Source: a virus (lineage: Duplodnaviria; Caudoviricetes). From it: DNA of 64,000 nt. The position numbers and the translations under genes are program-made. Within the stretch, counting starts at the first letter, position 1, and each line of letters starts with the position of its first letter. Under the pieces are notes generated by a model. It did no database searches and was not told the DNA's origin. It was given only the letters and a program-made list of their open reading frames with translations. Positions 23,701 through 58,503 of this stretch are shown here, one piece after another. The stretch is taken from positions 58,496 to 122,495 of the IMG/VR virus record IMGVR_UViG_3300033067_001743, one strand, 5' to 3'.

Positions 23701-23712
23701 TATACCTTATGC

Positions 23713-24099: not shown

Positions 24100-24134
24100 T
24101 TGGAAATCTCCGTTTTTAAAAAAGTTTGTTTTAC

Positions 24135-24377: not shown

Positions 24378-24402
24378 TTTTATTTCTCCTATATATTTTT
24401 TG

Positions 24403-24879
24403 TTAAGAATACTCAGCGTGATCATAAGCGATTGTTAAATCTACTTGGATCACGTCATCTGTACCGTAATCCATTTCACCCCACTTCACCCCACTATAGA
24501 AGGCTCCTATGAGTTTCCAAGTTCCAACTGGTGTTGAACCATCTGGTGCAAGGATTTGAATCTGTAAATCGTGTTTATACGATGTTGCGTACTGGTCTTC
24601 TGCTCCGGGAACGGCTTGGTGTTGTTGTAAGTAATCCCAAAATTGTAAGGCTGTTATACCTTCAAATTGGTAACAACTCATGGTCAAATCGTCCCAACGT
24701 GTTTTTCCCTTAACCTTGAAATAATAGTTGATATGCTCAACTGAAACAGGGGCATTTTCAAAGCCGGGTTGTTGTGAACTACGTGCATAAAACTGTGCGC
24801 CGGGTAATTTTGATGTCAAAACCTTATATCTAAACTGTAGACTTGGTTTGTAGGCATCTGGTGTTACTACTCTTGGCAT
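24403..24879 (-). CDS. Major tail tube protein (gp19-like)
   Basis: Directly after the sheath; KVKGKTRWDD, W.LIGAF, AYDHA. Confidence 0.85.
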   Translation of the reverse strand: MPRVVTPDAYKPSLQFRYKVLTSKLPGAQFYARSSQQPGFENAPVSVEHINYYFKVKGKTRWDDLTMSCYQFEGITALQFWDYLQQHQAVPGAEDQYATSYKHDLQIQILAPDGSTPVGTWKLIGAFYSGVKWGEMDYGTDDVIQVDLTIAYDHAEYS

Positions 24880-24947
24880 TTTATATTTCCTCTATTTTTC
24901 AGTCAACTTAATGACTTTACATATAACTATTATCTGGTTAAAATTTT

Positions 24948-26792: not shown

Positions 26793-26844
26793 TCATATTC
26801 CTCATTATTTTAATTTGTAAGACTTGAAAATCCTACTGTTCATC

Positions 26845-26852
26845 TATAAATA
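26845..26852 (-). promoter_or_regulatory. Late promoter-like motif TATTTATA
   Basis: Intergenic, upstream of the sheath gene. Confidence 0.55.
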
Positions 26853-26874
26853 TTGTCAAAAAAATCGAAACCAA

Positions 26875-27156
26875 TTACAACAATCCCTTCTTTCCAGATA
26901 GATTAATTGTCCTTATAGACTCTTGTATATTTAATGATGATCTCTGTAAAAATTTTTCTATTGGCTCAAACTTTTTATATCCAACATATACAAATCCTTC
27001 TTTAATTGTTAAAGCAGCATTTGGATATTTTCTGGCTATAATTCCACTAATATTTGTGAACCTTTTCTTTTGTTCTTCTGTCATTACAAAAGGTTCACTC
27101 TTAACAACAGGCTTCATTTTTCCAAATAGCCTTTCATAATTTTTCTTCAAATCCAT
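26875..27156 (-). CDS. Hypothetical protein
   Basis: 93 aa; AGGA SD. Confidence 0.6.
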   Translation of the reverse strand: MDLKKNYERLFGKMKPVVKSEPFVMTEEQKKRFTNISGIIARKYPNAALTIKEGFVYVGYKKFEPIEKFLQRSSLNIQESIRTINLSGKKGLL

Positions 27157-27171
27157 TTTTTATCCTTATTT

Positions 27172-28341
27172 TCAACGAACATATATTTTTAATGGTACAT
27201 AACTTAATTGTTTACTCATTGCATCTGCAATTGCACTTTTTCTTTCTAATTGTGCTTGCATAGATGTTGAATCTAATGTTTCTTTTAATTCTGTTAATAA
27301 TGCTTCTTTTTCTGTTGCAGCAGCACTTAATAAATCTGATCCATTTAATGTAACCTCACCATCTGGAATTGGCATTGATGAGTATTTTGATCTAATATAT
27401 CCCAACATTTCTTTACAGATTGCAAGGGTATATTTTCGTATCCACTGTTTACCAATTTCATTAATATATCTATATGTTATATTTTGATATGGTATATTAG
27501 ATATGTCACTTATTTTACCTGAACCACCATCTCCGTTTAAATCAAAATTAGTACCTTCTGCATCAAGTGAATAATGGAACCATAAATTAAATGATGTACT
27601 TGGTATTGGGAATATTCTAAGTCTATTTCCAGTCAATTGAAAACTATATCCACTTTTCCTTATTTCATCATTAAATTCTATTTGCTGCATTCTCAATACA
27701 TCATAGTATATTGGCATGAGCATATATGTTCCGGGTAAAGTGTAATTATTCCACCCAAATTCATTTGTTACTGCATCTGCAATTGTTCCTGCGGCTGGAT
27801 CATTATATCGTACTGATGCAGGTTTTAATTTATGAAATATTTTTCTAATGGTAAATTGATCTGTAGCAAATGATCCTGTTTCAATTGTTGTATCATTTAT
27901 TAAATTGTATACTTGTTTTCCCTGAACAACAGAAACCGATCCTGTGTAGTACGTTTGTGTTCCACCAGCACCAACCTCTGACCCATATGCTTTTGCTAAC
28001 CTGAATATACCTCTTAGTGTCTGTGGGATGTATTTTCCAGACAGATTTGAACTTCCTGTTGGAAATCCTTGTAAATTAATTAAATTATCCCTTGCTTGGT
28101 AGAAATTAACTAAGGCTCCATATTCATTTGTCGCTTCTTCAAATGCAGCATAAAAATTAATTTCATTTAATTCTACATCTGCTATTGGAAAACCTAATCG
28201 AAGAGCAGCCCACTTTGCAGTAGATTCAGCGTCATCTTGGAAATCTGGATCATTATCATAAAAACCAAAGGGAGTATATGTTAATGGAAAGAAAGAACCT
28301 GATCCGGGCCAAATGTCTATGTTTGGGTCTGTTTGAGACAT
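27172..28341 (-). CDS. Neck / head-tail adaptor (gp13-like)
   Basis: LGFPIADVEL, WIRKYTLAICKEMLG.IRSKY..MPIPDGEVTLNG. Confidence 0.75.
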   Translation of the reverse strand: MSQTDPNIDIWPGSGSFFPLTYTPFGFYDNDPDFQDDAESTAKWAALRLGFPIADVELNEINFYAAFEEATNEYGALVNFYQARDNLINLQGFPTGSSNLSGKYIPQTLRGIFRLAKAYGSEVGAGGTQTYYTGSVSVVQGKQVYNLINDTTIETGSFATDQFTIRKIFHKLKPASVRYNDPAAGTIADAVTNEFGWNNYTLPGTYMLMPIYYDVLRMQQIEFNDEIRKSGYSFQLTGNRLRIFPIPSTSFNLWFHYSLDAEGTNFDLNGDGGSGKISDISNIPYQNITYRYINEIGKQWIRKYTLAICKEMLGYIRSKYSSMPIPDGEVTLNGSDLLSAAATEKEALLTELKETLDSTSMQAQLERKSAIADAMSKQLSYVPLKIYVR

Positions 28342-28613
28342 TAAACTTTTCCTACTACCCTATAAAGATACTGTGCTATTTTGTTAGCATCATCCCTTGA
28401 AAAAGAAATTTTTGTATTTGCCTTTTTGTCTTCTAATATAACCAAAGTACTACCAACATCAACCCATATATTTCCGAACCTTCTGGCTGTATTTGATACT
28501 GGCTTTTTTGGCTTAAAAGCATCAGGTTTCTCCATTGGAGGTTCTTCATTTAAAACAGACTCTACTAATTTCCTAACCCTCAATCGAAGTTTAGTTTCTA
28601 ATTCTTTATTCAT
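28341..28613 (-). CDS. Small protein with an LRxxVRKLVE leader
   Basis: 90 aa; translationally coupled. Confidence 0.6.
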   Translation of the reverse strand: MNKELETKLRLRVRKLVESVLNEEPPMEKPDAFKPKKPVSNTARRFGNIWVDVGSTLVILEDKKANTKISFSRDDANKIAQYLYRVVGKV

Positions 28614-28943
28614 TTAACAGTCCTCTCCTTCTGGAAATAGTACTTTTAATTTTTGATATGCTTGTTCGTATATATTTGTCCAATTAGACAAATCATATTC
28701 GAATTCTATTTGAAACCAGTGTTGAACTTGTGCTCTATTTTCCCTTGCACCTTCATCAGGCCATACATAAATTAATGCTGTTGATTCTAATTTTTTAATC
28801 CACTTTAATTTTTGACTTCCATCTAGTAGATTTTCAAAAAATTCGTAGTCTGCACTCACACTATTTACATTCTGAACCTTTAGGTATGCTTCCTCTAAAA
28901 GGGTATCATCTGGTAATTGAAAATTTTTTACTTTTAATGCCAT
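28614..28943 (-). CDS. Hypothetical virion-associated protein
   Basis: MALK..AYLKV..NIYEQAYQKLK. Confidence 0.6.
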   Translation of the reverse strand: MALKVKNFQLPDDTLLEEAYLKVQNVNSVSADYEFFENLLDGSQKLKWIKKLESTALIYVWPDEGARENRAQVQHWFQIEFEYDLSNWTNIYEQAYQKLKVLFPEGEDC

Positions 28944-28944
28944 T

Positions 28945-29184
28945 TTATGCTTTTGATTTTTTGATTTTTGGTTTAGGTTCTACTATTTCTGGTTGAATTT
29001 CAGGTGTTTCTATTACTGTTACAACTGGTATTTCAACTGGTACTTCTTCTATAACAGGTTCTGGTTCAACTATAGGTGTTTTAACTTCTAAAGGTTTAAC
29101 TGTTGCCTTAACTTTAGGTTCTACAATTTCTACTTTTTTTGATAACAGGTTCTGCCATGCAGCCCACTTACTATTTTGATTCAT
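28945..29184 (-). CDS. Pro/Glu/Val-rich low-complexity protein
   Basis: AGGAG SD; late motif at 29201-29208. Confidence 0.55.
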   Translation of the reverse strand: MNQNSKWAAWQNLLSKKVEIVEPKVKATVKPLEVKTPIVEPEPVIEEVPVEIPVVTVIETPEIQPEIVEPKPKIKKSKA

Positions 29185-29221
29185 TTTGATCTCCTTTTAA
29201 TATAAATATCTTTTTCTATTC

Positions 29222-30883
29222 TCAAAGAATTAATGCACATTCGTAAAACAATCCTGTTGCGTTTTGTGGTACTTTACAGTGAAGAAAACTCAATGTATTA
29301 GACCCATCTATTAATGTAGATAATGCTAATTTATTTTGTATTTGATCACCTACAGAACCAACAATTGTTGGAATTGGAGTTATAGGAGTTAACTCTCTAT
29401 TTCTCACATCCAATCTAAAAACTCCAATTGGGCCTGCCCCGGTAGTAAATGGAGCATAAAAATAAATATATCTACCTTCTTTAGATATTCCATCATATAC
29501 AAATCCCATTCCTGTTATTGGAGTTATTAAATTCGCATAGTTAGGTGTAGTGGAGTAACTAGACCAGACACCAGTAGCAGCACCTGATATATCTAATACG
29601 TCCATAGGATTTCCACCTGTAGCGGCTGCTCTGGTACTATATATCATAGATGGTTTAATAAATAGTGATGGATCAACAACCCCAAAAATTTGTTCTGAAC
29701 CAATTCCAGCAGTTGATGGAGCAGATGTTCTGGCTGCCCAAGTTGAGGTATCCCATGTATTGGCCCCAACATTATAGTTGTAGACAGTTGTTGCATTTGT
29801 TAAAAATATAATTTTATCATTATCATTCTCAATAACAAACTTACAAGTTGATGAAGGTGTTACTGTCCAGTTAGAAGCCAATGTATAAACCGGACTTGGT
29901 CCTGCTGTGTGGGAAGTTATTCTTCTCCTTTGTCCTACTGCTGTTGGAGTTGTTGCATCTTCCACAATCCTAACTTGGAAGTTTCTAAATTGATTTGCTA
30001 TTAAAGTAGCATCACCATTAGAAGATTGTCCTGTTATTGTCCCAGCAGCAGTTGCAGTAGCAAGTAAACAGTTCTTTGCCCATGAACCTGAATCATATGT
30101 AGATGCTCCAACTACAAAACCTTCTCCCGGATACCTATTATAAGGTACAAATGATTCATCTAATATTACTATATCGTTAAATACAACACCTACTGTTGCT
30201 GGAAGGTTTGTAGTGGATAATGCGACAGATGTAATGCCTGTTGCTATGTCATGGTTTCTCCATTCTTTTGAAGCGCCTGTTGACAACATCCATAATTTAC
30301 CAGAAAGTAATTCATATCTACTACCTGATGTTGGTGTAAAGGTTAGTGGTTCATTCAAATATACTTGAATAGTAGACCCAGATGAATTTGCTACTATTCT
30401 TCTTTCTTCTATTTTCCCAGAAGAACCCGAATTATTATCAATAATCCTTAATATATACCCAAGACCATCCCCTCGGTCTGCAAGTTGATTTATATCTACG
30501 TTTCCAGTTGATATATTATTTAACCATAACATTGAAGTGGTTGCAGAACCTGTTGGTTGTGCTGATGAACCTGATATTGATCCAGTTGGACCACCAGAGG
30601 GCTGAAAATCCCAAGCCACAGCACTTGTTACTGTTCCTCCTAATGTTTGAGAGAATTGATTGTTTTTCCATCCGTTTGTAGTGGCATTATATGATTGGTA
30701 TATTGTTGTAGATGCTATAAACAAGTATTTCCTTGGATCAGCATAGTTTCTACTTCTCCTATCAAATGCAAACCCCCCGTTAACACTTCCTGCTGGTACA
30801 CCATAAGTGGCAGTTGGTTGTACTGCTATACCACGCCATTGTATTTTATCTAAGTATTTTTTACTATTATTTGTTATTGCCAT
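29222..30883 (-). CDS. Putative tail fibre / receptor-binding protein
   Basis: Thr/Ser/Gly-rich beta-type sequence with an internal duplication (RI..D......E/Q.RRI..). Confidence 0.55.
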   Translation of the reverse strand: MAITNNSKKYLDKIQWRGIAVQPTATYGVPAGSVNGGFAFDRRSRNYADPRKYLFIASTTIYQSYNATTNGWKNNQFSQTLGGTVTSAVAWDFQPSGGPTGSISGSSAQPTGSATTSMLWLNNISTGNVDINQLADRGDGLGYILRIIDNNSGSSGKIEERRIVANSSGSTIQVYLNEPLTFTPTSGSRYELLSGKLWMLSTGASKEWRNHDIATGITSVALSTTNLPATVGVVFNDIVILDESFVPYNRYPGEGFVVGASTYDSGSWAKNCLLATATAAGTITGQSSNGDATLIANQFRNFQVRIVEDATTPTAVGQRRRITSHTAGPSPVYTLASNWTVTPSSTCKFVIENDNDKIIFLTNATTVYNYNVGANTWDTSTWAARTSAPSTAGIGSEQIFGVVDPSLFIKPSMIYSTRAAATGGNPMDVLDISGAATGVWSSYSTTPNYANLITPITGMGFVYDGISKEGRYIYFYAPFTTGAGPIGVFRLDVRNRELTPITPIPTIVGSVGDQIQNKLALSTLIDGSNTLSFLHCKVPQNATGLFYECALIL

Positions 30884-30894
30884 ACTGTATTATT

Positions 30895-31443
30895 TTAAGT
30901 GGTTATTAATTGTAATCTGGTGTTTTGAAATGCTATATTTAATAATTGATCATTAATAGATATTGTCGTAGGTACACCAGAACTTTGGTTTAATGTGGTA
31001 ACAGTTGATACAGTGGTAACAGTTGATACAGTAGTAACAGCAGAGCAAGTTCCCAATGATGTTAAAACACCAGACGTTATTTTAAGACCTCCTACCGCAT
31101 CTACAAAATTTGGGTTAGCAACAATTTTAATTAACTCTTTAATTTCTATTGCCAAATCAGATATATTAGTGTCTTGGTTATCTGAGTTATCATAAAAAAT
31201 CTGTAATACATCTGAATTAGAATATGATGTTGTGTCAAATTCCAAAGTTAATACATTATTTGCAAAATTTGTATACCCATATCCACTAATATATGGATTG
31301 TATATTATTGTTTCTCTTGTTAAATTAACGATAATCAATACTTGCCATATCCTTAAATCATATATACCAGACAGTGTAATTGTCTTAGTTGCCGCATTGA
31401 ACAGGTATGAACTATTACCATTACCTACTATTTTTTTACTCAT
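30895..31443 (-). CDS. Virion structural protein
   Basis: Y.FNAATKTIT..LIIVNLTRETIIYN; TTVSTV repeats. Confidence 0.55.
   Translation of the reverse strand: MSKKIVGNGNSSYLFNAATKTITLSGIYDLRIWQVLIIVNLTRETIIYNPYISGYGYTNFANNVLTLEFDTTSYSNSDVLQIFYDNSDNQDTNISDLAIEIKELIKIVANPNFVDAVGGLKITSGVLTSLGTCSAVTTVSTVTTVSTVTTLNQSSGVPTTISINDQLLNIAFQNTRLQLITT
30995..31040. repeat. 18-bp tandem repeat, about 2.5 copies, in frame
   Basis: GTGGTAACAGTTGATACA repeated. Confidence 0.8.
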
Positions 31444-31446
31444 GTT

Positions 31447-33243
31447 TTATCCTAATGCTATTGCAAATGCTATTGCTTGTCCTGCTGTTATACCACCACC
31501 TACATTTGTTAACCTTGATCCATCTCCTGCAAATGCACTTGCACTTACTAAACCTGATGATGATATTGTCATTCTAACATTTTGTGGACCTCCAACTACA
31601 AAATCAATACTTGATGATGGATGTGTAGTTGGTGTTAGGTTTCCTATTATTAATTTTGATCCTGTTGTATATAAATATGCATCATTTGCTTTTCCTAAAA
31701 ATTGTGGTTGATTATATCCACTTCCATTGATTCCCATATCAATGTAATTTCCAATCTCTGTCCCAGTATCATTTGTTGCAACTATATCTGATGATGCAGT
31801 TGTTGCAGTATTTTTATTTTGAATGTTTAACTGTAAATAATTATCAATATTCCCACTTGCTGTAATAGCATTAATTGAAGTTGCACCTGATAATTTAAGA
31901 ACCTTTAATATTTTATCAAATAAAAAGTCTGATGAACCTGATATTGATCCTGCATCATTAAATTGTACTGATTGATTTGGCCCGGCTGGATTTGCTGATG
32001 CCACTATTCCTGTTAATCCAGAGCCGTCTCCTACAAACGAACTTGATATTTGTCCTACTACATTAATACTTCCAGTAACATTAATACTTCCAGTAACAAT
32101 TTGATTAGACTTAAATATATTGGAACCTGTTGTGGCGTATGAAGCAGTGTTTTGTTCAATTATACCAAGTCTTAATAAAATTGATTCAGTTACTGTATTT
32201 AAACTTCCAGTTGTTTGCTCTAAATGAAATATTCTATTTGAAAATGAACTTGATAGTGTTGTAAAAGAACCTGATATATCACTTGATATTTGACTTGATG
32301 AAGATACTACACCACGGCCTTTTCCCTCATACTTAATGTCATATGAAGAACTTATTTGATCACTTCCTGATACAATATTTGGAATTAAGTTGTTTATCTG
32401 CTGACTGGAACTAAGTAATCCAGTTGGCGTATTTGTTATTTGATTATAATTTACTTGTGCTGATGCACTAAACAATACACTTGGTCTATTTAATAAATTA
32501 TTATAATCTACTTGTTGACTGGAACTTATAAACCCATTAGAACTGCTTAAAATTCCAGAAGGTATTCCCGTAATCTGACTATATATTACTTGTGAAGAAC
32601 CTGAAAATAATGACTTACTATCATATACAGATAGTCTATTGGCCAAAGAAGATGATACGTTTGTAAATGCTCCACTTATCTCAGTTTTTATAGCATATGA
32701 AGATGTACCATTTTCTAACCTTTGTATTTTGGTATCTGTTGAACTGGTATAAGTGTTGTAACTTGATGTAAATGTATTCTGTAAAAAAGAACTTGTAGAA
32801 AATGATCCAGATATTTGTTGAAAATTTACCTGCTGAGAAGACGATATAAGAGACTTTGACTCAAATACAGTTATTCTCCCACTCAAAGCATTTGATGCGC
32901 TTAGAAATGATCCTGAGATGTCAGAGCCTATCTGTGCAGATGAAGATATTAAATTAGTACCCCGTTGCTCATATCTCAAATCATATGAACCTGTTAACTG
33001 TTCCGATCCTGATACTAAATTGGAAGGTAGGTATGCTATAACTTGTTGACTTGAACTAACTATTCCAGATGGTGGAGTGTATTCACCTCCATCACTTCCT
33101 TTTGGTCCTTGTGGTCCGGGTTCATATATTTCTACTATAGAAGGAGGGTTCTCTTCTACTGCAATTACAGTTATTTCACTATTTGACTCAAAAACCTGTA
33201 ATTTAACATCGTCTCCATCTATAATATAAACTTGATCTGGCAT
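31447..33243 (-). CDS. Ser-rich tail fibre-like protein
   Basis: Short collagen triplet run, SSSxQ repeats, SYATTGSN.F..NQ, C-terminal AIAFAIALG. Confidence 0.65.
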   Translation of the reverse strand: MPDQVYIIDGDDVKLQVFESNSEITVIAVEENPPSIVEIYEPGPQGPKGSDGGEYTPPSGIVSSSQQVIAYLPSNLVSGSEQLTGSYDLRYEQRGTNLISSSAQIGSDISGSFLSASNALSGRITVFESKSLISSSQQVNFQQISGSFSTSSFLQNTFTSSYNTYTSSTDTKIQRLENGTSSYAIKTEISGAFTNVSSSLANRLSVYDSKSLFSGSSQVIYSQITGIPSGILSSSNGFISSSQQVDYNNLLNRPSVLFSASAQVNYNQITNTPTGLLSSSQQINNLIPNIVSGSDQISSSYDIKYEGKGRGVVSSSSQISSDISGSFTTLSSSFSNRIFHLEQTTGSLNTVTESILLRLGIIEQNTASYATTGSNIFKSNQIVTGSINVTGSINVVGQISSSFVGDGSGLTGIVASANPAGPNQSVQFNDAGSISGSSDFLFDKILKVLKLSGATSINAITASGNIDNYLQLNIQNKNTATTASSDIVATNDTGTEIGNYIDMGINGSGYNQPQFLGKANDAYLYTTGSKLIIGNLTPTTHPSSSIDFVVGGPQNVRMTISSSGLVSASAFAGDGSRLTNVGGGITAGQAIAFAIALG

Positions 33244-33247
33244 TAAA

Positions 33248-33643
33248 TCATCTCGTCACTTCTTTTAAAACCTTTACTGTTCCACTTATTAATTCTTTAA
33301 CATACTGATTTACTCCTGAACCTGAATATATTTCTATATCTATAAAAGCATTATCAAAATTAAATTGGCTTGATGAATATGCACTTATAACCATTCCAAT
33401 ACTACCACTACTTCTTGGTAGAACAACAGATGCACTTGTTGGAGTCATGTAAAATCCAGTTCCATCAGGTTGAACAGAACTGGAAATATTACATAAAATT
33501 ACATTAGATGTATAGGTAGGTCTTATCTGACCACGAACCTCGTAGCCAGTAAAATCAAAAGGAACTAGTGGATTGCCAGTTTTATAGACAAATCTCCTTT
33601 CAAAGGTTTTACCCTGTTTTATTACAAACGAATACCTAGACAT
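33248..33643 (-). CDS. Fibre adaptor / beta-sandwich virion protein
   Basis: FVIKQG.TF..DFTGY..RGQIR..DIEI..G.VKVLKEVTR. Confidence 0.6.
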   Translation of the reverse strand: MSRYSFVIKQGKTFERRFVYKTGNPLVPFDFTGYEVRGQIRPTYTSNVILCNISSSVQPDGTGFYMTPTSASVVLPRSSGSIGMVISAYSSSQFNFDNAFIDIEIYSGSGVNQYVKELISGTVKVLKEVTR

Positions 33644-33665
33644 AAACTTCCCTATTTATGGGTGA

Positions 33666-33971
33666 TTAAACCCAAGCAGCCCAACTTGCTGTTACACCCG
33701 TTGATGCTGGTACAAATCCTGATCCTGTTGCATAAAATCTCAATGTTGATCCTGATGCATTTGTATTTACAACTGTAATTGAATATTGTGGAGTTGTTGT
33801 TGATGATCCATAATTTACTGAATTAGCAATTACAACACTTGGTGCTGATATTAATGAGTGTGTTATAACAATTGATCCAGAGTTATCCGTTGATCCAGAT
33901 GTTAAACCTTTAGCAAATACTGCTGTTTGATAATCAAATTGTTGGTAAGGTTGAAATTTTGCTCTTGGCAT
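33666..33971 (-). CDS. Small virion protein (fibre C-terminal-like)
   Basis: Beta-rich, ends SWAAWV; GAGG SD. Confidence 0.5.
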   Translation of the reverse strand: MPRAKFQPYQQFDYQTAVFAKGLTSGSTDNSGSIVITHSLISAPSVVIANSVNYGSSTTTPQYSITVVNTNASGSTLRFYATGSGFVPASTGVTASWAAWV

Positions 33972-33986
33972 TTTTAATCCTCGTTT

Positions 33987-34592
33987 TTATCTGTGTAATA
34001 ATGACATTATTTTAGGTGCTATTGCTTTCATTGCGGCTGTTATACCATCAATAACTTCTGTTGTTTTTATCGCTGCTTTCATGCCCTGTACTAACAACTC
34101 ACTACTAAAAAATGTTGATTTAATTGTTGTAACAATTTCTTCCAGTGTGTGTCCTAATAACCCTGCCATAACACCAGTGAATATTAGTTTAGCAATAAGT
34201 TCCTTTTTATCTGGGTCTTTTGTCATCATACCGGCTACTTTTTCAAATATCCACATAACCTTTTCATGGTATTTTTCAGCAAATTCAAGTATCTTATTTG
34301 CTATTTCTGGTTCACCTAAACCAAGACCTAAATATTTTTTAAGTAATTTGTCTATACTACTCTGCAAAAAGGACACAAATTTACCAAACATCTTAACAAT
34401 AAATGGGCCTGATAGTAGTAAACCAATAACTGTGGATACCCCTTCATTTACCAGTGTCTTATTTCTACAAATTCTTACAACATCTTCGCTTAATATATCC
34501 AACCCTTTTAAAAATTGTTTTTCGAAATGTATCTCTACTACAATTCTCCTTACTTTCCTTCTTAGGGCATTTTCTAATACTTTATTCTGCAT
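33987..34592 (-). CDS. Hypothetical helical protein
   Basis: LRRKVRRIVVE leader; amphipathic helices. Confidence 0.6.
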   Translation of the reverse strand: MQNKVLENALRRKVRRIVVEIHFEKQFLKGLDILSEDVVRICRNKTLVNEGVSTVIGLLLSGPFIVKMFGKFVSFLQSSIDKLLKKYLGLGLGEPEIANKILEFAEKYHEKVMWIFEKVAGMMTKDPDKKELIAKLIFTGVMAGLLGHTLEEIVTTIKSTFFSSELLVQGMKAAIKTTEVIDGITAAMKAIAPKIMSLLHR

Positions 34593-39160: not shown

Positions 39161-41320
39161 TTAAATTTTCACTATTTTGTAAACCTTTCCGTTTACCCTC
39201 AAAAAGTAAACACCTGATGGTAAATTAGTTATATCTGTGCAGTTACCATCTATCTCAAATTCTGACACTTTCAACCCTCTAACATCATATAACAATGCTT
39301 TTCCAAAAGTATTTGAAAACCTAAATATACCACTTGTTGGATTAGGTGTTATAACATCTGGTTGATCTACAAGGTTTGCAGGTGTTGTAAATATAAAAGT
39401 ATTAGACCAAGTTGAACACTGATTCTTTACTCTCCACTCATATGTCGATGCCGGGGTGAATCCATAAAAATGAACAGTTGGATTTACAAATGAACTTCCT
39501 ATTGTTGAAAAATTAGGTGATCCCGGAAACTTTAACTGAATTTGATATGGTGGATTTCCTGCTTGCCATGAAAATATGGCAGATGTCGATGTAAGACTTG
39601 TGACTTGTAAGTTTATAGGAGCAGGACATCCTGTTCCACCTGAAAGTGTTACAAATTGTACTATTGGGCCATAATTTTGATTACAATCTGGTCTAACCCT
39701 TACCATGTAACTTGTATTTGGTGTAAGATTAGTTAGTGTTAAGGAAGTACTTGGTATCAATCCAAACTCTATCCAGTTAGTTACACTTGAGGCTTTATAT
39801 TGTAGATTATAAGTAGTTACTCCATTTAACGGAGTCCAAAATACCATTGCACTTGTCTGTGTTATGTTTGATGTACTTGGTAAAATTAGTGTATTACATC
39901 CATTACCACCACCTGAACCTGTTGTTGTAAATACTACTGGTACTGTGTAGTTTGAGCAATCTGTTTTAACCTGCCAGTGGTATTGTGTATTTGTAACTAA
40001 TCCAGTAATTGTATAACTTGTATTAAGTCCTACTGATACTGTAGTCCACATTGTCCCTACAACAGGTTTGTATTGAATTGTGTAAGACTGTGATCCGGCT
40101 ACTGCTGACCATTGTATTGTGGCAGTTGTATTTGTTATTCCTGTTGTTTGTAAATTTGTTGGAGCCGCACTTGTTCCTGTTAAACAGGGTGCATTGTTAA
40201 ATTTATTTCGTATTAAATTTCCCGGAACTGGACCAAATCCATTTGCAAAGTTAATCCCATATTGAGTTAAGTGGCAATAACTCATAATAGTTCCACCATT
40301 AACAGGTGTTGGGCCGGGAGGACATCCACCCTCTGTTGGAACACAATTGTCTAATGCTCCATTAGGCCAATTACATGACTGGGTATGCCATGATCCAATA
40401 TTATGACCAAGTTCATGTGTAACTACTTCTACTGACCATGAATATGTTGGTACATTTTGAAATGTAGTGGTTATAGCACTTACTCCAAATGCATAACTTT
40501 TAATACATAAAACATCTACATAGGCAATCCCACCTCCAAGATTTCTTGTACTTAAAAAGTGTGCAAGGTTCCCATTAAAATTAGAGCCTAATGTATTTCT
40601 AAATGCATTTAATACACTTGAGGTGTTGGTGTATGGGATGTATGGGTCTGGTGTATTCCAAACCTTTATTTGGGATATTTGAACTGTTATTTGTTCATTG
40701 GTGTACAACATTGATATTTGATTAAACAATGCTGTTATGTAGTTCACTGTATTTGTAACACTTGAACCTTTGTCTTGGTATAATTTGTAGTCTGCTTCAA
40801 AGTATATTTGAATGGCCTTACAAGCCACTGTAGGCGATTCTGAGACACTTACTGGACTTGGGGCATCCTGAGTATAGCATTCGAATGGAACTGCTCTCTC
40901 AGAGGGTATTAGACGCATTGTGTAAGGTTTAGATTTTTGTCCTGATATTTCATAGTTTCCTGTTTGATCAGAAAAACTACAAATTACATCACCTTTGTAC
41001 ATTGATACAGTTGCCACTGAGTTTGGAAGATTATCAATATTGCCTTGATAAAAGGTTCCTTGTACATCTGTTATAATTTCCCCACTACTTGTCTCTACAA
41101 AAAAATCTTCGGATAATATATCAACCTTATGTAGATTCAAACCAAAACCTTTTCCCGGAATATCTACATGGATATTTGTTGTATTAGTGGTCTTTAGTGT
41201 ATTGGTTGCAATATCATTTACTATACCTGATTTAAAAAGAGGTATGTCTTGGTATATTCTATTTTGAGCACTTAAATTAAGTCCTACTAATATACTCAGT
41301 ATTGATAGTAAATATTTCAT
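39161..41320 (-). CDS. Secreted M12/reprolysin-like Zn metalloprotease with 3 FN3 domains and a T9SS C-terminal sorting domain
   Basis: Signal peptide ending LSA-Q; HELGHNIGSWH; Met-turn TIMSYCH; FN3 repeats; PNPTSG..LYDVRG..DITNLPSGVYFLRV..KIVKI. Confidence 0.88.
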   Translation of the reverse strand: MKYLLSILSILVGLNLSAQNRIYQDIPLFKSGIVNDIATNTLKTTNTTNIHVDIPGKGFGLNLHKVDILSEDFFVETSSGEIITDVQGTFYQGNIDNLPNSVATVSMYKGDVICSFSDQTGNYEISGQKSKPYTMRLIPSERAVPFECYTQDAPSPVSVSESPTVACKAIQIYFEADYKLYQDKGSSVTNTVNYITALFNQISMLYTNEQITVQISQIKVWNTPDPYIPYTNTSSVLNAFRNTLGSNFNGNLAHFLSTRNLGGGIAYVDVLCIKSYAFGVSAITTTFQNVPTYSWSVEVVTHELGHNIGSWHTQSCNWPNGALDNCVPTEGGCPPGPTPVNGGTIMSYCHLTQYGINFANGFGPVPGNLIRNKFNNAPCLTGTSAAPTNLQTTGITNTTATIQWSAVAGSQSYTIQYKPVVGTMWTTVSVGLNTSYTITGLVTNTQYHWQVKTDCSNYTVPVVFTTTGSGGGNGCNTLILPSTSNITQTSAMVFWTPLNGVTTYNLQYKASSVTNWIEFGLIPSTSLTLTNLTPNTSYMVRVRPDCNQNYGPIVQFVTLSGGTGCPAPINLQVTSLTSTSAIFSWQAGNPPYQIQLKFPGSPNFSTIGSSFVNPTVHFYGFTPASTYEWRVKNQCSTWSNTFIFTTPANLVDQPDVITPNPTSGIFRFSNTFGKALLYDVRGLKVSEFEIDGNCTDITNLPSGVYFLRVNGKVYKIVKI

Positions 41321-41350
41321 TTTTTTAATCTCCTTAATTTGGATGTGTAT

Positions 41351-41358
41351 TATAAATA
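41351..41358 (-). promoter_or_regulatory. Late promoter-like motif TATTTATA
   Basis: Upstream of the protease, followed by a TAAGGAG SD. Confidence 0.55.
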
Positions 41359-41377
41359 TCCAAATTAAAAACCTTAA

Positions 41378-45255: not shown

Positions 45256-45310
45256 CAAAGATACGAACCTTTTAACCTTTGTCAAGACTATTAACAACTT
45301 AATAACATTT
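45256..45310 (-). promoter_or_regulatory. Early host-sigma promoter
   Basis: TGTTAT..TGTTAA, TTGACA, GTTCGTATCTTTG. Confidence 0.75.
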
Positions 45311-47470: not shown

Positions 47471-49138
47471 TTAAAGAGTGTTCAATCCTTCAACGTATAT
47501 TTTACCGTAGTATTCGGGCCTGAGTACACCTTTCGCGTATCTTGTCATCACACCTTTTCTTGGTGTGAAGTTGTCAGGATCAAGGACAACAGGAGTCATC
47601 ATCAATGGAACGTATGGTGAGTAATATGCACCAGTTTCTAACCACTGACTTCCACGGTATCCCATAAGGATACAGTTTTCTTTCATGTATGGATTCTTCC
47701 ATACTTGGAACCTGTTATTGATTTGTCCAATCTTCTGAACACCCATGCTAAAGTTGCTCTTATTTCCATCAGTATCAGCAGCATAGCCGGGAATACTTTC
47801 AAGAATAGTTGCTACAAGAGGTGAACATACTAAGAAGTTCGCTCCACCACGTACTGTGGCTTGGTGAATCCTGTTGCTCATTTTCTGGATTTTAGTTCCA
47901 AGTGTTTGGAACCATGTACCCTGAGTGTAAGCAGTTAAGTTCTGAGTTATTGCTGCAAAACTTGTTCCGTTAAACTCATATCCAATTCTTGTTGACCAGT
48001 AGTCAGAAACTGCTGCTTCGTGTATCAACATGTCCAAAATTTCAAGATCAATTTCCTGTGAAATGTACTCTCCCAATATACCAGTCAACTCCGCCTCAGC
48101 GTCGATGTTCTGGTATGCGTTCAAGTCCTGAGCAAACTCAGGTGTCCATCTTGCTTTCAATTTACGTGTTTTAGCAACAATCGCATCTGAACGCAATTCA
48201 AGACTTAATTCTGGAATATCAATAGGGGTGTCAATTCCACTACCTGCCTGTGTCTTACCAGCCTCAAAATCACCACGAGTGATAGAAGTAGGTTGTTTGT
48301 GGTAGTTAACTACAATACCATCTGTTGCACCAAGTGCTGAACCTGAAATAATAAATGTTACTGTTGCAGCAGATTTATTATATCTTGTGAATTCTTGATA
48401 TACATCATAAACAAGAGAGTTAGTCGAGTTTGATAGAGTAAATGCACGAACACCAAGTGGATCAAAACTTGCAATAGATGCAGTTGCAATAGTTACTTTG
48501 TGCAATCTTGCACCACCAACCAATAAACTCTGGCTAAATTCTGAGTTAAAGTTGTAATCTGTTGCAGATATAGAACTGGTTGCAAAGTGAGTTGAGTCTG
48601 CTGTAGATGCAACTGTCAATGCAGAACTTGAGTAATCATTGATTGTATATCCAAATCTACCCGGTCCAAAAAGACCTTCTGTTGGGGTTGCCCATCCATA
48701 AGATGCACCTGTTCCTTTTGCAGGATCAGTAATACCGAATACAGAATCATCCTGACGGTCTTTTCCTGTACCTGTATTAAATCCGGGCTGTCCTGTTCCG
48801 TATTTAATATCCAACCAGAATACAAGACCCGAAGGCATGTTCATTGGCTGAACTGATACGAAATCCTTTGCTGAAATTTCAGCAAAAATCCTTCTAATAA
48901 GAGGGAGAGCGATACCTGCCCATTCTTCCGAACCAGCAATGGTTCCAGTTTGGTTCGCTTCTGTTACTAACTGACGCGCTTGGTTTTCAAGCAACTGCGC
49001 CATATTTCCTTTTTCTGGCCCACCTAAACCTTCAAGAAGTCCAGTGCGTTCCCATTTACGGGTAAGCATCTGTGCTTGCTTTCTTTGGTTCATATAGGCA
49101 TCTTTTGGTAATAAATCACTAAGATTCATTTGTGCCAT
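47471..49138 (-). CDS. Major capsid protein (T4 gp23-like)
   Basis: LLENQ, LPLIRR, VSVQPM..PSGLVF, AKTRKLKARWTPEFAQDL, EIDLEI, Y.PYVPL, F.PR.GVMTRY. Confidence 0.95.
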   Translation of the reverse strand: MAQMNLSDLLPKDAYMNQRKQAQMLTRKWERTGLLEGLGGPEKGNMAQLLENQARQLVTEANQTGTIAGSEEWAGIALPLIRRIFAEISAKDFVSVQPMNMPSGLVFWLDIKYGTGQPGFNTGTGKDRQDDSVFGITDPAKGTGASYGWATPTEGLFGPGRFGYTINDYSSSALTVASTADSTHFATSSISATDYNFNSEFSQSLLVGGARLHKVTIATASIASFDPLGVRAFTLSNSTNSLVYDVYQEFTRYNKSAATVTFIISGSALGATDGIVVNYHKQPTSITRGDFEAGKTQAGSGIDTPIDIPELSLELRSDAIVAKTRKLKARWTPEFAQDLNAYQNIDAEAELTGILGEYISQEIDLEILDMLIHEAAVSDYWSTRIGYEFNGTSFAAITQNLTAYTQGTWFQTLGTKIQKMSNRIHQATVRGGANFLVCSPLVATILESIPGYAADTDGNKSNFSMGVQKIGQINNRFQVWKNPYMKENCILMGYRGSQWLETGAYYSPYVPLMMTPVVLDPDNFTPRKGVMTRYAKGVLRPEYYGKIYVEGLNTL

Positions 49139-49184
49139 TTATACATATCTCCTATGTCTTTTTTGTGTGTTTTATCCAATTAAA

Positions 49185-50231
49185 TTACCAAGCATTATAT
49201 TCATCATCCTTACGGAGTCCGGCTAATCTCTGTAATCTTGTTACAGTATTTTCGCCTATGATTTGCTTTTGGCTATTTTTTGTTTTTGGATTTATCTGTT
49301 GAATTGCTTTCGATGCCAATCCCTTGTTTTCCTTAATAGCAGCCTTTCCTTTCTTGTTGAAAGATTCAACTATTGTAGTATACACAAGTTTAACTTCTCT
49401 TACTGTTTTTGCACGGTCGAAACTTTCAAGGATTCTAACTTGCTGATTTTCGTTTAGTTCAAACTGACGTAATGTCTTAGTTGTAAACATTAACTTAGCA
49501 TTTAACAAGTTTACTTCATTAATGGCTTGCTTGTAAGTTGTGATGGTTCTGAATGCTTCTTGTAGATCACCTTTAAGCCTTTTGTTCTCATTTCTGAGTT
49601 TTCTATTCTCAAGGAATTGTGGTCCATTTGGTAGACTGTCTTTGAATACTGATCCGTCTTCTTTGTTTGGACCCATATCTAATTCATCCCCTAAACCTTC
49701 TTCTTCTCCAAGTAATGCTTCAAGTACTGATTCTACTACATCATCTTCATATGCGCCGTCACCATTTGCTTCTGAAAATTGATCTTCTTCTGCTGATGGA
49801 TTTGTACTCATAAATTCATCTTCTTCACCTTCCATCATGTCGTCTTCCATTCCCATTCCATCATCTTCACCTTCAAGTTCACGAATTAAGGCTTCAAGTT
49901 CTAAATCTTCTTCTCCGGCTGGTTCTTCTGCTGGCATTTCTTCTTCACCAGTATCTGCTGAACCTTCGAAGCCTACATCTGAACCTTGTTCCTCTCCACC
50001 CATTTCATCTTCTCCACCACCAAATTCATCTTCTGAATTTACTTCGATTTCAATGTCTTCTCCAAACATGTCATCGTTTTCCATGTCATCTTCTTCTGCT
50101 AATTTTGAAGAAATCATTCTTTGAAGGGTTGGTTGAAAAGTTTCTTCGAGTGCAATTTTAGCGTTTGCAAGTGCTGCTGATTTAACCCTTTTTGCATCTG
50201 CAATTGCTTCTTGTAATATGTTCTTTGCCAT
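49185..50231 (-). CDS. Prohead core / scaffold protein
   Basis: LQEAIADAK, very acidic middle, EVNLLNAKL, RLQRLAG; directly upstream of the capsid gene. Confidence 0.8.
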   Translation of the reverse strand: MAKNILQEAIADAKRVKSAALANAKIALEETFQPTLQRMISSKLAEEDDMENDDMFGEDIEIEVNSEDEFGGGEDEMGGEEQGSDVGFEGSADTGEEEMPAEEPAGEEDLELEALIRELEGEDDGMGMEDDMMEGEEDEFMSTNPSAEEDQFSEANGDGAYEDDVVESVLEALLGEEEGLGDELDMGPNKEDGSVFKDSLPNGPQFLENRKLRNENKRLKGDLQEAFRTITTYKQAINEVNLLNAKLMFTTKTLRQFELNENQQVRILESFDRAKTVREVKLVYTTIVESFNKKGKAAIKENKGLASKAIQQINPKTKNSQKQIIGENTVTRLQRLAGLRKDDEYNAW

Positions 50232-50345
50232 TGAAATTATTCTCCTAAATTTCTATTTGGTCTTTCACACCTATTCAGAGATATGATATGTATAAATTTT
50301 TATATTTTTAAAATAGATATTAAATCTACTATATTGTCTTTATGA

Positions 50346-50353
50346 TATAAATA
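50346..50353 (-). promoter_or_regulatory. Late promoter-like motif TATTTATA
   Basis: Upstream of the scaffold-capsid operon. Confidence 0.55.
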
Positions 50354-50357
50354 TTGT

Positions 50358-50892: not shown

Positions 50893-51129
50893 TTACCCAT
50901 TACTCATTGAGTCTTTTTGTTGATTGTATTTTGCAAGGGACATTTGTTCCCTCTTTGATACACTCTTTTTCTTGTAATACTTTTTATCAAACAAGTCTTG
51001 AATTATATTTGAATCTTTTTGCTGTTTCTTCCAGATTCTTAGTGCTGTTGAAATGTCTCCACCGTTAACTTTTACAGACTGTGGGCTGCCGGGAACTGTT
51101 CCCTGAAATTTCTTTGATGTTAAATGCAT
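50893..51129 (-). CDS. rpsU: Ribosomal protein bS21 homolog
   Basis: VKV..GDISTALRIWKK....II..L..KKYY.K.SV.KR; located in the head module. Confidence 0.75.
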   Translation of the reverse strand: MHLTSKKFQGTVPGSPQSVKVNGGDISTALRIWKKQQKDSNIIQDLFDKKYYKKKSVSKREQMSLAKYNQQKDSMSNG

Positions 51130-51148
51130 TTAATTTTTGTTTATATTG

Positions 51149-55060: not shown

Positions 55061-56920
55061 TTAATTAGTGGAATCATCTAAAATGTTATTTTCATTTAGC
55101 ATATTTAAGTCAATATCTAATTTATTTGACTCTAATAATGATTTTCTTACATCTTTACTGTAAGTTTTTTCTAATTTTTTTATGAATCTACTGTAAGATT
55201 CTTTTGGAGCAGATGGAGTTTCCATCTTATCGTTTTCCCTTCTACCAACTGGGTCTCTTCCAAAATCTTTATCTCTTTTAGTTTCAAAATTTCCCTTATA
55301 TTGAAGAGGCTTACCTTCATTATCTTCCCTTCCATCAGGAGTGTATAATTTTTCCATGTCTTCTTGAGATGATGGAATGTTTCTACTACTAACTTGAAGG
55401 GATGCAATATCCCAAGGTGTTCCAAACGATTTTCCAGATACTTGTGGATCATTACCTTCTTCTGTTAATTGCTTTAATCTAAATTGTAATTTGGCATCTT
55501 CCACTCTTCTATCTAAGTCTGCCTTCCATTCATCTTCACTCATTCCAAATATATTTTCGTAGATGTATTTTTGAGAGAATATATTCCCTTCGACTATAGA
55601 CTTGGCTAAATCAACTTTAGCAGTCATAACATCTGTCTTTTGTCTTTCGAATACTAAACTTGGATTTGTTAGGAATAATTCAAAACTTAATAAATCATCA
55701 TCACGAAAACCTTGAACATATAAGTGTGTTAAGGCTATTTTATATAATTCAGAAACAAATATTTTTTGCACTCTCTCCACTGTTCGAGCGAACCTTATAT
55801 CAAGTGATGCTAATCCTGCTTTTGATCCACCACCAGAATCTTCCCCATAACCAAGAAAATCTTTTGGTATTTTTATGGCAGCCATCATTTTTTTCCTGAT
55901 GTATTCTACATCATCCATTGCATTCTGATTTTGTAATCCCGGTAACACATCTACAGAATTACCACTCTGTGCTCCACGTTGAGGCATGAACCAGTCTTCC
56001 ATTGTATTCTCAAGATTATATCTCAAGTTATATTCGCCGGTTTGTGGGTCAATGTATGGGGTTTTCTTCATCTCCTGAATGATACCTTCTACATGAGCAT
56101 CAACTTCCTCTGGTGCAATGTTTCCAATGTCAATTTTTACTATTCTTCGCTCTGGTGCTCTCATAATCCTATGCAATAAGACAGCATCTTCAAGTAATGA
56201 TAGCATTTTGTATGCTTTCTTTGCTGGTTCTATAAAAGACCTTCCATATGGCAAATAATTAGTGTCAGTTAATAGCCTAAAGTGCGCTATTTCAAATGTT
56301 TCAAACTTTTCTTGTGTTGACCAATAACCAACGCCTTCCCCTTCATATGAAAATTGAACAAGGTCTGGATTTTCTTTATTTAATCCTTCTTCCCTTCTCA
56401 TTAAACTTGGATGTATTGGCATTACATTAGTTACACCATATTGCTCATCTATCTGTAAATATAAAAAGTGATCGCCATATTTACACATTGTTCTAATCCA
56501 CGACCACATATTGAATTCTATATTTAGAACATCATAAAATAAGTTATGAAGTAGTTTTTTTACCTTTTCATTGTCTGTCTTTATCTTCAATAATTGACCA
56601 TCAACATCTACAGTAGTGCTTTCTTCTGCAATTAAATCAAGGGCTGATGATATAATAGCATCACTATCCATTAATTCATAGTCAATGTAAAACATCCTTC
56701 TCATTGCCTCTATTTCTTCATTAGCGGTTGCACCACCAAATCCCGGACCATAACCGCCCATTCTACCACTACGCCATTTCGACCTATTAGAAAATTTTGT
56801 TGGAGAACCGACTGATTGACTCTTACTTACATCAAGTGTCTTTAATCTTCCTCCGGGCAAATGTTTTATAATTACATTTCTAGTAAACATTTGCTTTAAT
56901 CTATCTCTTATAGAAGCCAT
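55061..56920 (-). CDS. Portal protein (gp20-like)
   Basis: YELMD.D.IISSALD, LEDAVLLHRIMRAPERR, IDIGN, EDWFMP.RG, LPG, DIRFAR. Confidence 0.93.
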   Translation of the reverse strand: MASIRDRLKQMFTRNVIIKHLPGGRLKTLDVSKSQSVGSPTKFSNRSKWRSGRMGGYGPGFGGATANEEIEAMRRMFYIDYELMDSDAIISSALDLIAEESTTVDVDGQLLKIKTDNEKVKKLLHNLFYDVLNIEFNMWSWIRTMCKYGDHFLYLQIDEQYGVTNVMPIHPSLMRREEGLNKENPDLVQFSYEGEGVGYWSTQEKFETFEIAHFRLLTDTNYLPYGRSFIEPAKKAYKMLSLLEDAVLLHRIMRAPERRIVKIDIGNIAPEEVDAHVEGIIQEMKKTPYIDPQTGEYNLRYNLENTMEDWFMPQRGAQSGNSVDVLPGLQNQNAMDDVEYIRKKMMAAIKIPKDFLGYGEDSGGGSKAGLASLDIRFARTVERVQKIFVSELYKIALTHLYVQGFRDDDLLSFELFLTNPSLVFERQKTDVMTAKVDLAKSIVEGNIFSQKYIYENIFGMSEDEWKADLDRRVEDAKLQFRLKQLTEEGNDPQVSGKSFGTPWDIASLQVSSRNIPSSQEDMEKLYTPDGREDNEGKPLQYKGNFETKRDKDFGRDPVGRRENDKMETPSAPKESYSRFIKKLEKTYSKDVRKSLLESNKLDIDLNMLNENNILDDSTN

Positions 56921-58503
56921 CTAAGGTTCTCCTTTTGTCCTGATTTACCTGTAGTCATTTCCCATTGACTTGAACCTAATGGTTCTGGTTTATAAACTGT
57001 TTTGTGTGTGTTTTTTACAGCATTTTTATTCAATTGAATTCCCAATTGTCTTAATCTTAATGCCGTATCTCTTATATACAATCCCATTGCCAAGCACATA
57101 ACTAAATCGTCAGTCTTACCCCTCTGTGCTTGTGGTTTTCCATTCAACCATATAAATACTTTTAGTTCGTTTATTAATCTTTTAGAGTGTATTATAGGAC
57201 TTCTATCTTCAAAGTACATAACTAATTTAGAAATGAATACAGGTCTTAGTCTTGTAGTTGTTGTTAATCCGGGAACCATATCTTCTTTATTAGTAGTATC
57301 ATAGTTTTTTCTCAGATGTATATTTTCATCTAAAAATGGGTCATTCTTATATGAGTAGTATAAGTTTTTATATCCTAAATCTAATGCAACTTGAACAGTA
57401 CTCCATCCTACGTTTTTATTATCTATTACAAGTAGTGCGTTATTATATTCAGTTGCTATTGCAACTCCCATTCTTCCAAAAGTTTGAGTATCTATTTGAC
57501 CTCTATACTCTGCCACTTGTTCACAAGTTTCTACATCAAATACTTCTAAACCTGAATCATCGGCTCCATCACCCCTTGCTGGGTCTTGGATTACAATGTA
57601 ATCTTTTGTTGATTCTGGATATTTCCAAATCCAAAGATCACCTCCAATTCCTCGTGTTTCTATTGGGTCTATTGTTTTATCTTCATACTCTTTTAAAATC
57701 TCTGATTCTATTACAGTATGACCAGAGGTTAAGAAGTCACAGTCACATTCCTGTGATGCCATTCTTTTTCCTAATTGATGATCTTGCTCATCTCTCCATG
57801 TTTGATCTCTTTCTGGATGTAAATACCAAGGCAATCGTATTGTATTAAATTTCTGTAATCCCGGTGTAACCTTTCCCTCTTCTGCTTGAGTCCAAAGTTC
57901 TTCAAACTTATTACCAGTTCCATTTGGAGTTGATAACATTACACACTTACCACCTGTTGCCAAAGTCATTTGTGCTGATGTCCAAATAGCATCTGCTGAT
58001 TCAACAAATGCAAATTCGTCAAATATCAATAAAGATAATGCTGATGATCTGGCTGCATCTGGCGAACTTGATACTGCCTTAATTGAACTACCATTGCTAA
58101 AAGTAAGACTAAGTTTATTGTTGTTTACAATAGATAAACCTTGTTTTAGAAAGTTTGGTAGAAATTCAAATGCCAATTGAACCTTTTCTACTAGGTTCTT
58201 TGCTACTTCTTGAGTTGTAGCGATTACAAGTATTTTAAAATCATCATTGAACATCATCTCATGTAATGCATATCCGGCTACCAGTGTACTGATACCCATT
58301 TGACGAGATTTTAAAATTATATTGTATCTATTCTGTTGTAATTGATATAATGTCTGTTCCTGAAATGGATATAAATCAAATAATATCTTTCCCCTTATTG
58401 GGTGTGCTATTTTAGCATATTTTCTAAAGAAATATACTTGATCTGTTCCACACTTCAAGAATTCATCTTTTACAATTTCTCTTAAATTAGTCTGGTTGCT
58501 TAT
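56908..58503 (-). CDS. Terminase large subunit (gp17-like); start probably ATA at 58503
   Basis: LKSRQMGIST, IFDEFAF, STPNG, DPARGDG.D, DDLVM. Confidence 0.93.
   Translation of the reverse strand: MSNQTNLREIVKDEFLKCGTDQVYFFRKYAKIAHPIRGKILFDLYPFQEQTLYQLQQNRYNIILKSRQMGISTLVAGYALHEMMFNDDFKILVIATTQEVAKNLVEKVQLAFEFLPNFLKQGLSIVNNNKLSLTFSNGSSIKAVSSSPDAARSSALSLLIFDEFAFVESADAIWTSAQMTLATGGKCVMLSTPNGTGNKFEELWTQAEEGKVTPGLQKFNTIRLPWYLHPERDQTWRDEQDHQLGKRMASQECDCDFLTSGHTVIESEILKEYEDKTIDPIETRGIGGDLWIWKYPESTKDYIVIQDPARGDGADDSGLEVFDVETCEQVAEYRGQIDTQTFGRMGVAIATEYNNALLVIDNKNVGWSTVQVALDLGYKNLYYSYKNDPFLDENIHLRKNYDTTNKEDMVPGLTTTTRLRPVFISKLVMYFEDRSPIIHSKRLINELKVFIWLNGKPQAQRGKTDDLVMCLAMGLYIRDTALRLRQLGIQLNKNAVKNTHKTVYKPEPLGSSQWEMTTGKSGQKENLRWLL

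Follow-up and report, generated by a model that had tools for sequence, protein, structure and literature searches.

Our comparative sequence analysis gives good support to an evolutionary coupling, within one phage family, between a phage-encoded ribosomal protein bS21 and Shine-Dalgarno (SD) sites on late genes, the two being found together in nearly all cases. Bacteroidota ribosomes normally ignore SD sites. The phage described here appears to run two translation regimes, with SD-less leaders on its early and metabolic genes and on the bS21 gene, and with SD-led leaders on its late genes. The coupling in itself is no proof of the job of phage bS21, which is a testable matter. The window, meaning the whole stretch of DNA that was analysed, is the final 64 kb of a 122,495-bp IMG/VR viral contig (CheckV completeness 67%).

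The phage has a T4-like capsid and tail. Its DNA has a GC content of 33% and holds 181 genes, nearly all on the minus strand, and the gene strand is rich in purines. The host is putatively a member of the Bacteroidota, as indicated indirectly by Bacteroidota-type intergenic promoters and by the closest cultured relative, Flavobacterium phage vB_FspM_immuto (MW353175; immuto below), whose host is a Flavobacterium. Since PHROG left many genes of the window unnamed, gene classes were set by module, promoter type and homology to the contig's modules. Starts were called blind to SD, as the first ATG of the ORF, and SD sites were scored by the duplex energy (dG) of bases -20 to -3 with CACCUCCUUU, an SD being called at dG <= -5.5 kcal/mol. 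The head genes follow the order terminase, portal, protease, bS21, scaffold and capsid, and the main features of the window are these:

56908-58458, minus strand: large terminase (phrog_2, E=9e-47), no SD, dG about 0
55061-56920, minus strand (55061..56945 with its AAGGAG): portal gene (phrog_213, E=2e-61), dG -8.9, the SD sitting within the end of the terminase gene
52108-52752, minus strand: prohead core protease, S77 (PF03420, E=5e-25)
51130..51148, minus strand: bS21 leader, A-rich, zero G and no SD (AACAATATAAACAAAAATTAA then ATG), dG +2.0
50893-51129, minus strand: phage bS21 gene, 78 aa (Pfam PF01165, E=2.4e-8, 34 bits against a gathering score of 27)
49185..50354 including the promoter, minus strand: acidic scaffold-like gene starting at 50231 with an AGGAG SD; late-type motif ATATTTATA at 50346-50354
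47471-49138, minus strand: major capsid gene, Gp23 family (PF07068, E=4e-77), AGGAG 10 nt 5' of the ATG (element 47471..49160), dG -7.3
39161..41359, minus strand: gene starting at 41320, whose 719-aa product resembles an Ig-like major tail protein (phrog_4971), AAGGAG, late-type motif at 41351-41359
11957..34592, minus strand: tail and baseplate module (PHROG matches), SD on most genes, late-type motifs at 29201-29209, 26845-26853, 23007-23015 and 20712-20720
24948-26792, minus strand: sheath (PHROG match), within the tail module
15099-20453, minus strand: tape-measure-like gene (PHROG match), within the tail module

The original prediction had read the ORF at 50893-51129 as a bS21 gene, and the match to PF01165 above the gathering score bears this out; the gene has the prohead protease gene on one side and the scaffold and capsid genes on the other. 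The gene starting at 41320 had been called the protease, a role that belongs to 52108-52752. A homologue of the scaffold-like gene was found in all relatives, and the tail module also includes a baseplate hub (PHROG match; a baseplate-hub-like gene starting at 21981). Three tail-tube paralogues (phrog_4542) lie in this single tail module, at 24403-24879, 22518-23000 and 22009-22503 on the minus strand. A 640-nt gap in the module holds the sole plausible plus-strand ORFs of the window (23039-23620), of 85 aa and of 101 aa with a hydrophobic N-terminus.

The replication and metabolism genes of the contig include a family A DNA polymerase, a class II ribonucleotide reductase (RNR), UvsX, SSB and a DnaB-like helicase. 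The replicative polymerase (L004:10643-12928, on the same contig outside the window) is of family A (PF00476), unlike the family B enzyme of T4, and capsid, portal, protease, sheath and UvsX are T4-like despite this. A PurA-like adenylosuccinate synthetase homologue (phrog_1211, "2-aminooxy adenylosuccinate synthetase") adjoins PhoH (35485-36609 and 34598-35260, minus strand), an arrangement that could hint at a modified purine metabolism. The sequence before a 624-aa late-promoter gene (L002:2212-2370, same contig, outside the window) is tRNA-like with a GGTTCGATTCC T-arm; tRNA and Rfam scans of the 64-kb window gave no match.

Host-type early promoters, which the original prediction had placed ahead of SD-less genes, proved to be real: the Bacteroidota sigma-A type pattern TTG-N17-21-TAnnTTTG is enriched in intergenic DNA, where 7 of its 15 gene-strand copies end in a fraction that makes up 6.4% of the contig (p=2e-5). 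A second motif, ATATTTAT[AG], has 13 of 18 gene-strand copies in intergenic DNA (p=2e-12) with only 4 copies on the opposite strand, and precedes the sheath, the scaffold, a tube gene and other virion genes. Its position and the analogy with the T4 late promoter suggest that it is probably the late promoter of the phage family. It is equally enriched in immuto and in the bS21-bearing relative G002, and the difference between relatives with and without bS21 is confined to the leaders; immuto has the same late motif but short SD-less leaders. The T4 late promoter TATAAATA was tried and rejected as it shows no enrichment here; the motif in use includes TATTTATA, the reverse complement of TATAAATA. 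The promoters are located as follows:

45256..45285, minus strand: sigma-A type promoter TTGACA...TATCTTTG, ahead of the SD-less polynucleotide kinase gene
about 47346-47375, 39118-39148 and 10643-10673: similar sigma-A type promoters
60513-60521, 55049-55057, 50346-50354, 41351-41359, 35291-35299, 29201-29209, 26845-26853, 23007-23015, 20788-20796 and 20712-20720: copies of ATATTTAT[AG]

The 473-nt gap before the 20692 gene contains, at 20900-20960, two TAnnTTTG elements in a near-perfect inverted repeat (TTTGTCACAAATATAGCATACTTTTGTGACA), directly preceded by a G+C-rich, terminator-like hairpin with a T-run. This repeat could be an operator or a regulated promoter.

SD statistics cover the 164 genes of the 122-kb contig with unambiguous starts. 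A dG of -5.5 or below was reached by 19 of 41 structural-module genes (46%) versus 17 of 123 others (14%; Fisher 4e-5, Mann-Whitney 3e-7), so that the difference between late and early genes noticed from the sequence holds as a real and significant one when pairing energies are computed contig-wide. Non-structural genes stand at the chance level, since their 14% matches the 13% background at internal ATGs. Core motifs of at least 4 nt gave the same picture (25/41 structural-module versus 23/123 other genes, p=8e-7), and the contrast persisted when the best-scoring start candidate was taken for each gene. Grouping by promoter alone, for genes directly behind a promoter motif, put an SD on 9 of 12 late-type but 1 of 9 host-type genes (p=0.006). 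GGAG/GAGG cores lie 4-13 nt 5' of the start codon in 30 of 31 cases, against a flat spread at internal ATGs. Cores complementary to CCUCC at 4-13 nt before the start codon are thus commoner than background on structural-module genes, and judged by this position and complementarity the motifs qualify as predicted SD sites.

Inspected singly, the sites named in the original prediction are there, and its list needs correction in two labels alone, those of 41320 and 20806. An AGGAG or AAGGAG stands before the starts at 49138 (capsid), 50231, 56920 (portal), 41320, 29184, 14214, 54176, 60228 and 60497, and GAGG or AGGA precedes those at 26792 (sheath), 24879 (tube), 33971 and 53666. The AGGAG claimed before 24377 is also present; this position is an in-frame ATG 16 codons into the longest ORF (24135-24425, minus strand), which begins at 24425 without an SD. 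The ATG at 24377 is preceded by ATAGGAGAAATAAAA and on this sequence is probably the true start, in which case the first-ATG rule undercounts late-gene SD. SD-less leaders were recovered for 5921, 5093, 3862, 10636, 37736, 39100, 45238, 46664, 47322 and the bS21 gene; 20806, listed with them, is not a start codon. SD-bearing late genes comprise those for the capsid, scaffold, portal, sheath, tubes, several small virion proteins and the lysis amidase, and structural genes without an SD are the terminase and baseplate hub. Strong SD sites outside the virion modules belong to the lysis amidase, two genes behind late-type promoters, RNR, a nuclease, a methyltransferase and an HNH gene. Two exceptions that had been conceded beforehand are among these, namely the AAGGAG of the class II RNR gene starting at 900 and the missing SD of the baseplate-hub-like gene at 21981.

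IMG/VR was scanned four times on the basis of the capsid. Of the 132 distinct loci recovered, all of which extend 4 kb or more upstream of the capsid gene, 66 contain bS21. In 77 of 77 tabulated loci (first three scans, duplicates included) the bS21 gene shares the strand of the capsid gene and sits 1-4 kb upstream of it. The head-gene SD fraction is 0.47 with bS21 versus 0.08 without (132 loci; Mann-Whitney 6e-21), and an SD precedes the capsid gene in 94% of loci with bS21 versus 8% of those without. The original prediction had offered the same SD use in bS21-less relatives as a refutation of its claim, and the comparison shows that SD is not used there. This division extends to whole genomes, for which SD fractions are given below for late homologues and for the rest, followed by the internal-ATG background:

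This contig, with bS21: 0.46 and 0.14, background 0.13
G002, with bS21: 0.41 and 0.13, background 0.15
G007, with bS21: 0.42 and 0.19, background 0.13
G008, with bS21: 0.29 and 0.15, background 0.14
G005 (complete), no bS21: 0.05 and 0.05, background 0.12
G006 (complete), no bS21: 0.00 and 0.05, background 0.18
immuto (complete), no bS21: 0.00 (0/16 late homologues) and 0.04, background 0.18
T4 (control), no bS21: 0.57 and 0.56, background 0.10

A search with PF01165 found no S21 match anywhere in the complete genomes of G005, G006 and immuto, and the three avoid SD, as their rates are below background. T4, whose host uses SD, has it on all gene classes.

On the capsid tree phages with and without bS21 interleave: the leaf order breaks into eight runs, and parsimony needs 5-6 changes of bS21. 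In four well-supported independent pairs SD moves the same way as bS21 in 3-4 and the opposite way in none; four pairs are too few for significance in a sign test, which requires six independent contrasts, and a fourth capsid scan added mostly contigs already in the sample. The coupling rests on 4-6 independent events. Among conserved head-module genes, compared within 10-kb flanks, bS21 is present in 44/46 loci classed as bS21-bearing versus 0/47 of the others, and the neighbour gene at 51456-52106 is partly linked (45/46 versus 12/47). As bS21 identity increases with capsid identity (rho 0.39), the sequences fit a mainly vertical descent with repeated losses of bS21. Head modules of relatives without bS21, searched with every HMM filter switched off, gave no bS21 remnant (best score 2.8 bits).

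The match to PF01165 spans residues 18-70 of the phage protein and positions 1-54 of the 55 in the profile. Ahead of the S21 domain is a 17-aa basic N-terminal extension (MHLTSKKFQGTVPGSPQ), so that 20 residues precede the first strand versus 5 in 63-aa forms, and the phage protein departs from the minimal length of about 63-64 aa without extension that marks Bacteroidia-type bS21. An AlphaFold2 model of low confidence (pLDDT 69) predicts a single long helix at residues 26-76 with residues 1-25 unstructured. PDB bS21 chains including 9i5v_9 and 7jil_z align by sequence, weakly (E 0.014-0.5). The C-terminal A-x-Y-x-Q motif, whose retention had been raised as a caveat, is present: Y68 in A-K-Y-N-Q aligns with Tyr54 of F. 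johnsoniae bS21, with the Tyr of chain 9i5v_9 and with that of 63-aa bS21 forms, and is invariant among the 10 closest homologues. Ile55, which touches the 3' tail of the rRNA through van der Waals forces, is not conserved, Asn69 following the Tyr here. The C-terminus is non-basic, as is typical of Bacteroidia. The kept Tyr68 and non-basic C-terminus are features of a protein that masks the anti-SD, which speaks against a switch. With tblastn, this bS21 and two divergent relatives were searched against 50,697 GenBank phage records. This bS21 had no match at E<=1e-3, and the type is absent from the cultured phages among the records, the sole hits being two weak ones in uncultured 735-kb records.

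In F. johnsoniae the 3' tail of 16S rRNA with its anti-SD is held by bS21 (Tyr54, Ile55), bS18 and bS6 (Jha et al. 2021, PMC7797042). Tyr54 stacks on A1534. Depletion of bS21, deletion of its C-terminus or the Y54A change raises translation of a strong-SD reporter up to about 5-fold (McNutt et al. 2023, PMC9976891), which makes alteration of the bS21 site a proven means of shifting SD recognition. Loss of the masking tyrosine was considered as the cause of SD use in the phages. The residue at the Tyr54 position in 99 phage bS21 proteins is Y in 55, F in 8, R in 27, K in 6, L in 2 and V in 1, so that 36% of the family lacks an aromatic there; SD use is equal with and without it (0.49 versus 0.47), and a lost tyrosine thus fails to explain the pattern. 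All 99 proteins have an N-terminal extension, so that 16-47 residues come before the first strand versus 5 in 63-aa forms; the extension has a median length of 16 residues, a median net charge of +3 and, in 61%, a PG motif near its end. The bS21 genes of relatives have a median leader dG of 0.1 and about 80% lack an SD. A subclade (L031, L033, L045, L047, L052, L056, L060, L062, L066, L068, L071) with a 75-77-aa bS21 has no Tyr54-type residue (e.g. A-I-R-R-Q) and differs from the others in that an AAGGAA-type SD precedes its bS21 gene; SD use on head genes is highest in this subclade (mean 0.59).

We propose a mechanism in which the A-rich, SD-less leaders of the early, metabolic and bS21 genes would be usable by native Bacteroidota ribosomes with a sequestered anti-SD. 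The bS21 mRNA, being SD-less, would be read by native ribosomes first, and its product would be taken into the exchangeable bS21 site of the host 30S subunit. Ribosomes converted in this way would pair with SD, favouring the SD-led late mRNAs. The chances that phage bS21 acts so, through that site, appear to us evenly balanced. A fuller claim, to which we lean a little less, is that phage bS21 with its basic extension may be a ribosome-specificity switch that restores the SD recognition silenced in the host and opens a private high-output channel for late virion and lysis proteins. We favour the conserved basic N-terminal extension as the source of an effect on the anti-SD, because phage bS21 keeps the masking Tyr and because the extension is common to all 99 proteins; it could act by making the SD-anti-SD helix more stable, or by competing with the pocket in which the rRNA tail sits. 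The bS21 gene belongs to the late block, and that of G002 is preceded by a late-type promoter of its own. As this block is not an early one, any switch would be feed-forward within the late phase. What stands of the ribosome-switch reading in the original prediction is the SD split, the early promoters, the SD-less bS21 leader and the SD-less relatives without bS21; the replacement of host bS21 and the freeing of the anti-SD stay conjectural, A-K-Y-N-Q being kept.

The foremost alternative, unlikely in our view, is the model of Chen et al., by which phage bS21 would substitute for the host protein while the anti-SD stays masked; phage mRNAs would be picked through other contacts, for example by a changed N-terminal helix or by sequence lying 5' of the SD, and late SD sites read by natural ribosomes that lack bS21. 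The Tyr54 equivalent and Bacteroidia-like C-terminus kept in phage bS21 agree with masking, for which Chen et al. argue in the part of their paper considered here, and a bS21-free ribosome subpopulation that reads SD mRNAs does exist (PMC9976891). The same model leaves the loss of SD in bS21-less relatives, even to below background, unexplained, and SD use is unchanged in the 36% of the family without the aromatic residue.

Rather less probable is a confounding by lineage or host, where bS21 and SD would both be inherited marks of phage clades whose hosts have partly SD-competent ribosomes, or would both be tied to a third gene with no causal link between them. The small number of independent transitions (4-6) and a co-variation test within 10-kb flanks only leave room for this reading, as does the L344/L346 lineage, in which strong SD sites occur but bS21 was not detected. 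This lineage, of higher GC and with the same late motif, has AAAGGAG before the capsid gene and AAAGGAA before the scaffold gene; no bS21 was found in the head module or in recovered fragments of records that are 10-16% complete. A borderline neighbouring lineage has SD at background once whole fragments are scored. Against a confound, the early genes of bS21-bearing phages have Bacteroidota-type promoters and SD at the background rate, the clades with and without bS21 interleave on the capsid tree while sharing a late promoter motif, and immuto, without bS21, infects a Flavobacterium.

Marginally less probable again is an action of opposite sign, in which infection would deplete host bS21 and the resulting ribosomes with a free anti-SD would translate SD-led late mRNAs, phage bS21 then refilling the site and so sustaining SD-less translation or limiting the late one. 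The loose binding of bS21, its late joining in 30S assembly and its autoregulation via SD in Flavobacteriales would all suit such a timer, as would the kept masking Tyr. A feedback regulator would however be expected to bear an SD like host rpsU, which is absent here and from about 80% of the relatives' bS21 genes, and no candidate factor for removal of host bS21 was found among the window genes searched. Very improbable, finally, is that the purine-rich motifs are not ribosome-binding sites at all but parts of late transcription starts, stability elements or compositional chance: several do follow the late promoter motif at a distance of 14-20 nt on a purine-rich gene strand, but the spacing is canonical in 30/31 and flat at internal ATGs, many sites (portal, 60228, 54176, 28613, 14214) are within upstream coding sequence far from promoters, and relatives with the same late promoter have no such motifs.

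No other ribosomal protein turns up in phage genomes as often as bS21, and the proposed switch, if true, would explain why. The pattern is a concrete signal readable in sequence, an SD on late genes only that is gained and lost with bS21. If confirmed, a virus would re-specify the mRNA choice of its host's ribosome by the exchange of one small protein. The F. johnsoniae reporters and purified ribosomes already in use for the host bS21 switch make the role of phage bS21 directly testable.

The phage group is already known from Chen et al. (2022, ISME Commun 2:31, PMC9723584), who in the part considered here described it along with the position of bS21 and late expression, took the conserved Tyr to mean that the anti-SD remains blocked, and proposed a selection of phage transcripts with no recognisable signal named. 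Their freshwater Bacteroidetes myophages resemble ours in a bS21 within the terminase-portal-protease-capsid block, implying late expression, in a host phylum Bacteroidota (putative here), in an aromatic at the Tyr54 position and in the proposed substitution into host ribosomes. That part of the paper holds no analysis of SD on phage genes, whereas here SD marks the late genes and vanishes with bS21; and the myophages it describes keep the aromatic, which 36% of the wider family lacks. Full-text literature searches returned nothing that connects phage bS21 with the SD sites of late genes, and a late-gene SD regime tied to bS21 was not found in the literature; McNutt et al. (PMC9976891) only speculate on bS21 exchange. 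The T4-like Pelagibacter phage HTVC008M also has a bS21, which can enter ribosomes (Mizuno et al. 2019, as cited in PMC9976891), but its host is of another phylum and it is not known to have been linked to SD use. For huge phages Watson et al. (2020, eLife, PMC7550191) likewise asked how bS21 relates to ribosome-binding sites, and with genome-wide consensus sites of bS21 phages and their hosts saw no clear relation; here the signal emerges only when late and early genes are split and bS21-less relatives are compared. Immuto shares the head-module order and the late motif of our phage, but has no bS21 and an SD on none of its late homologues. A parallel in kind is the autoregulation of bS21 in F. 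johnsoniae (PMC9976891, PMC7797042), where occupancy or sequence of bS21 sets the reading of SD and the same lever would serve a phage; in that host the anti-SD becomes free when bS21 is missing, and rpsU has an SD, whereas in the phages SD use accompanies a variant bS21 that is present and whose gene is SD-less.
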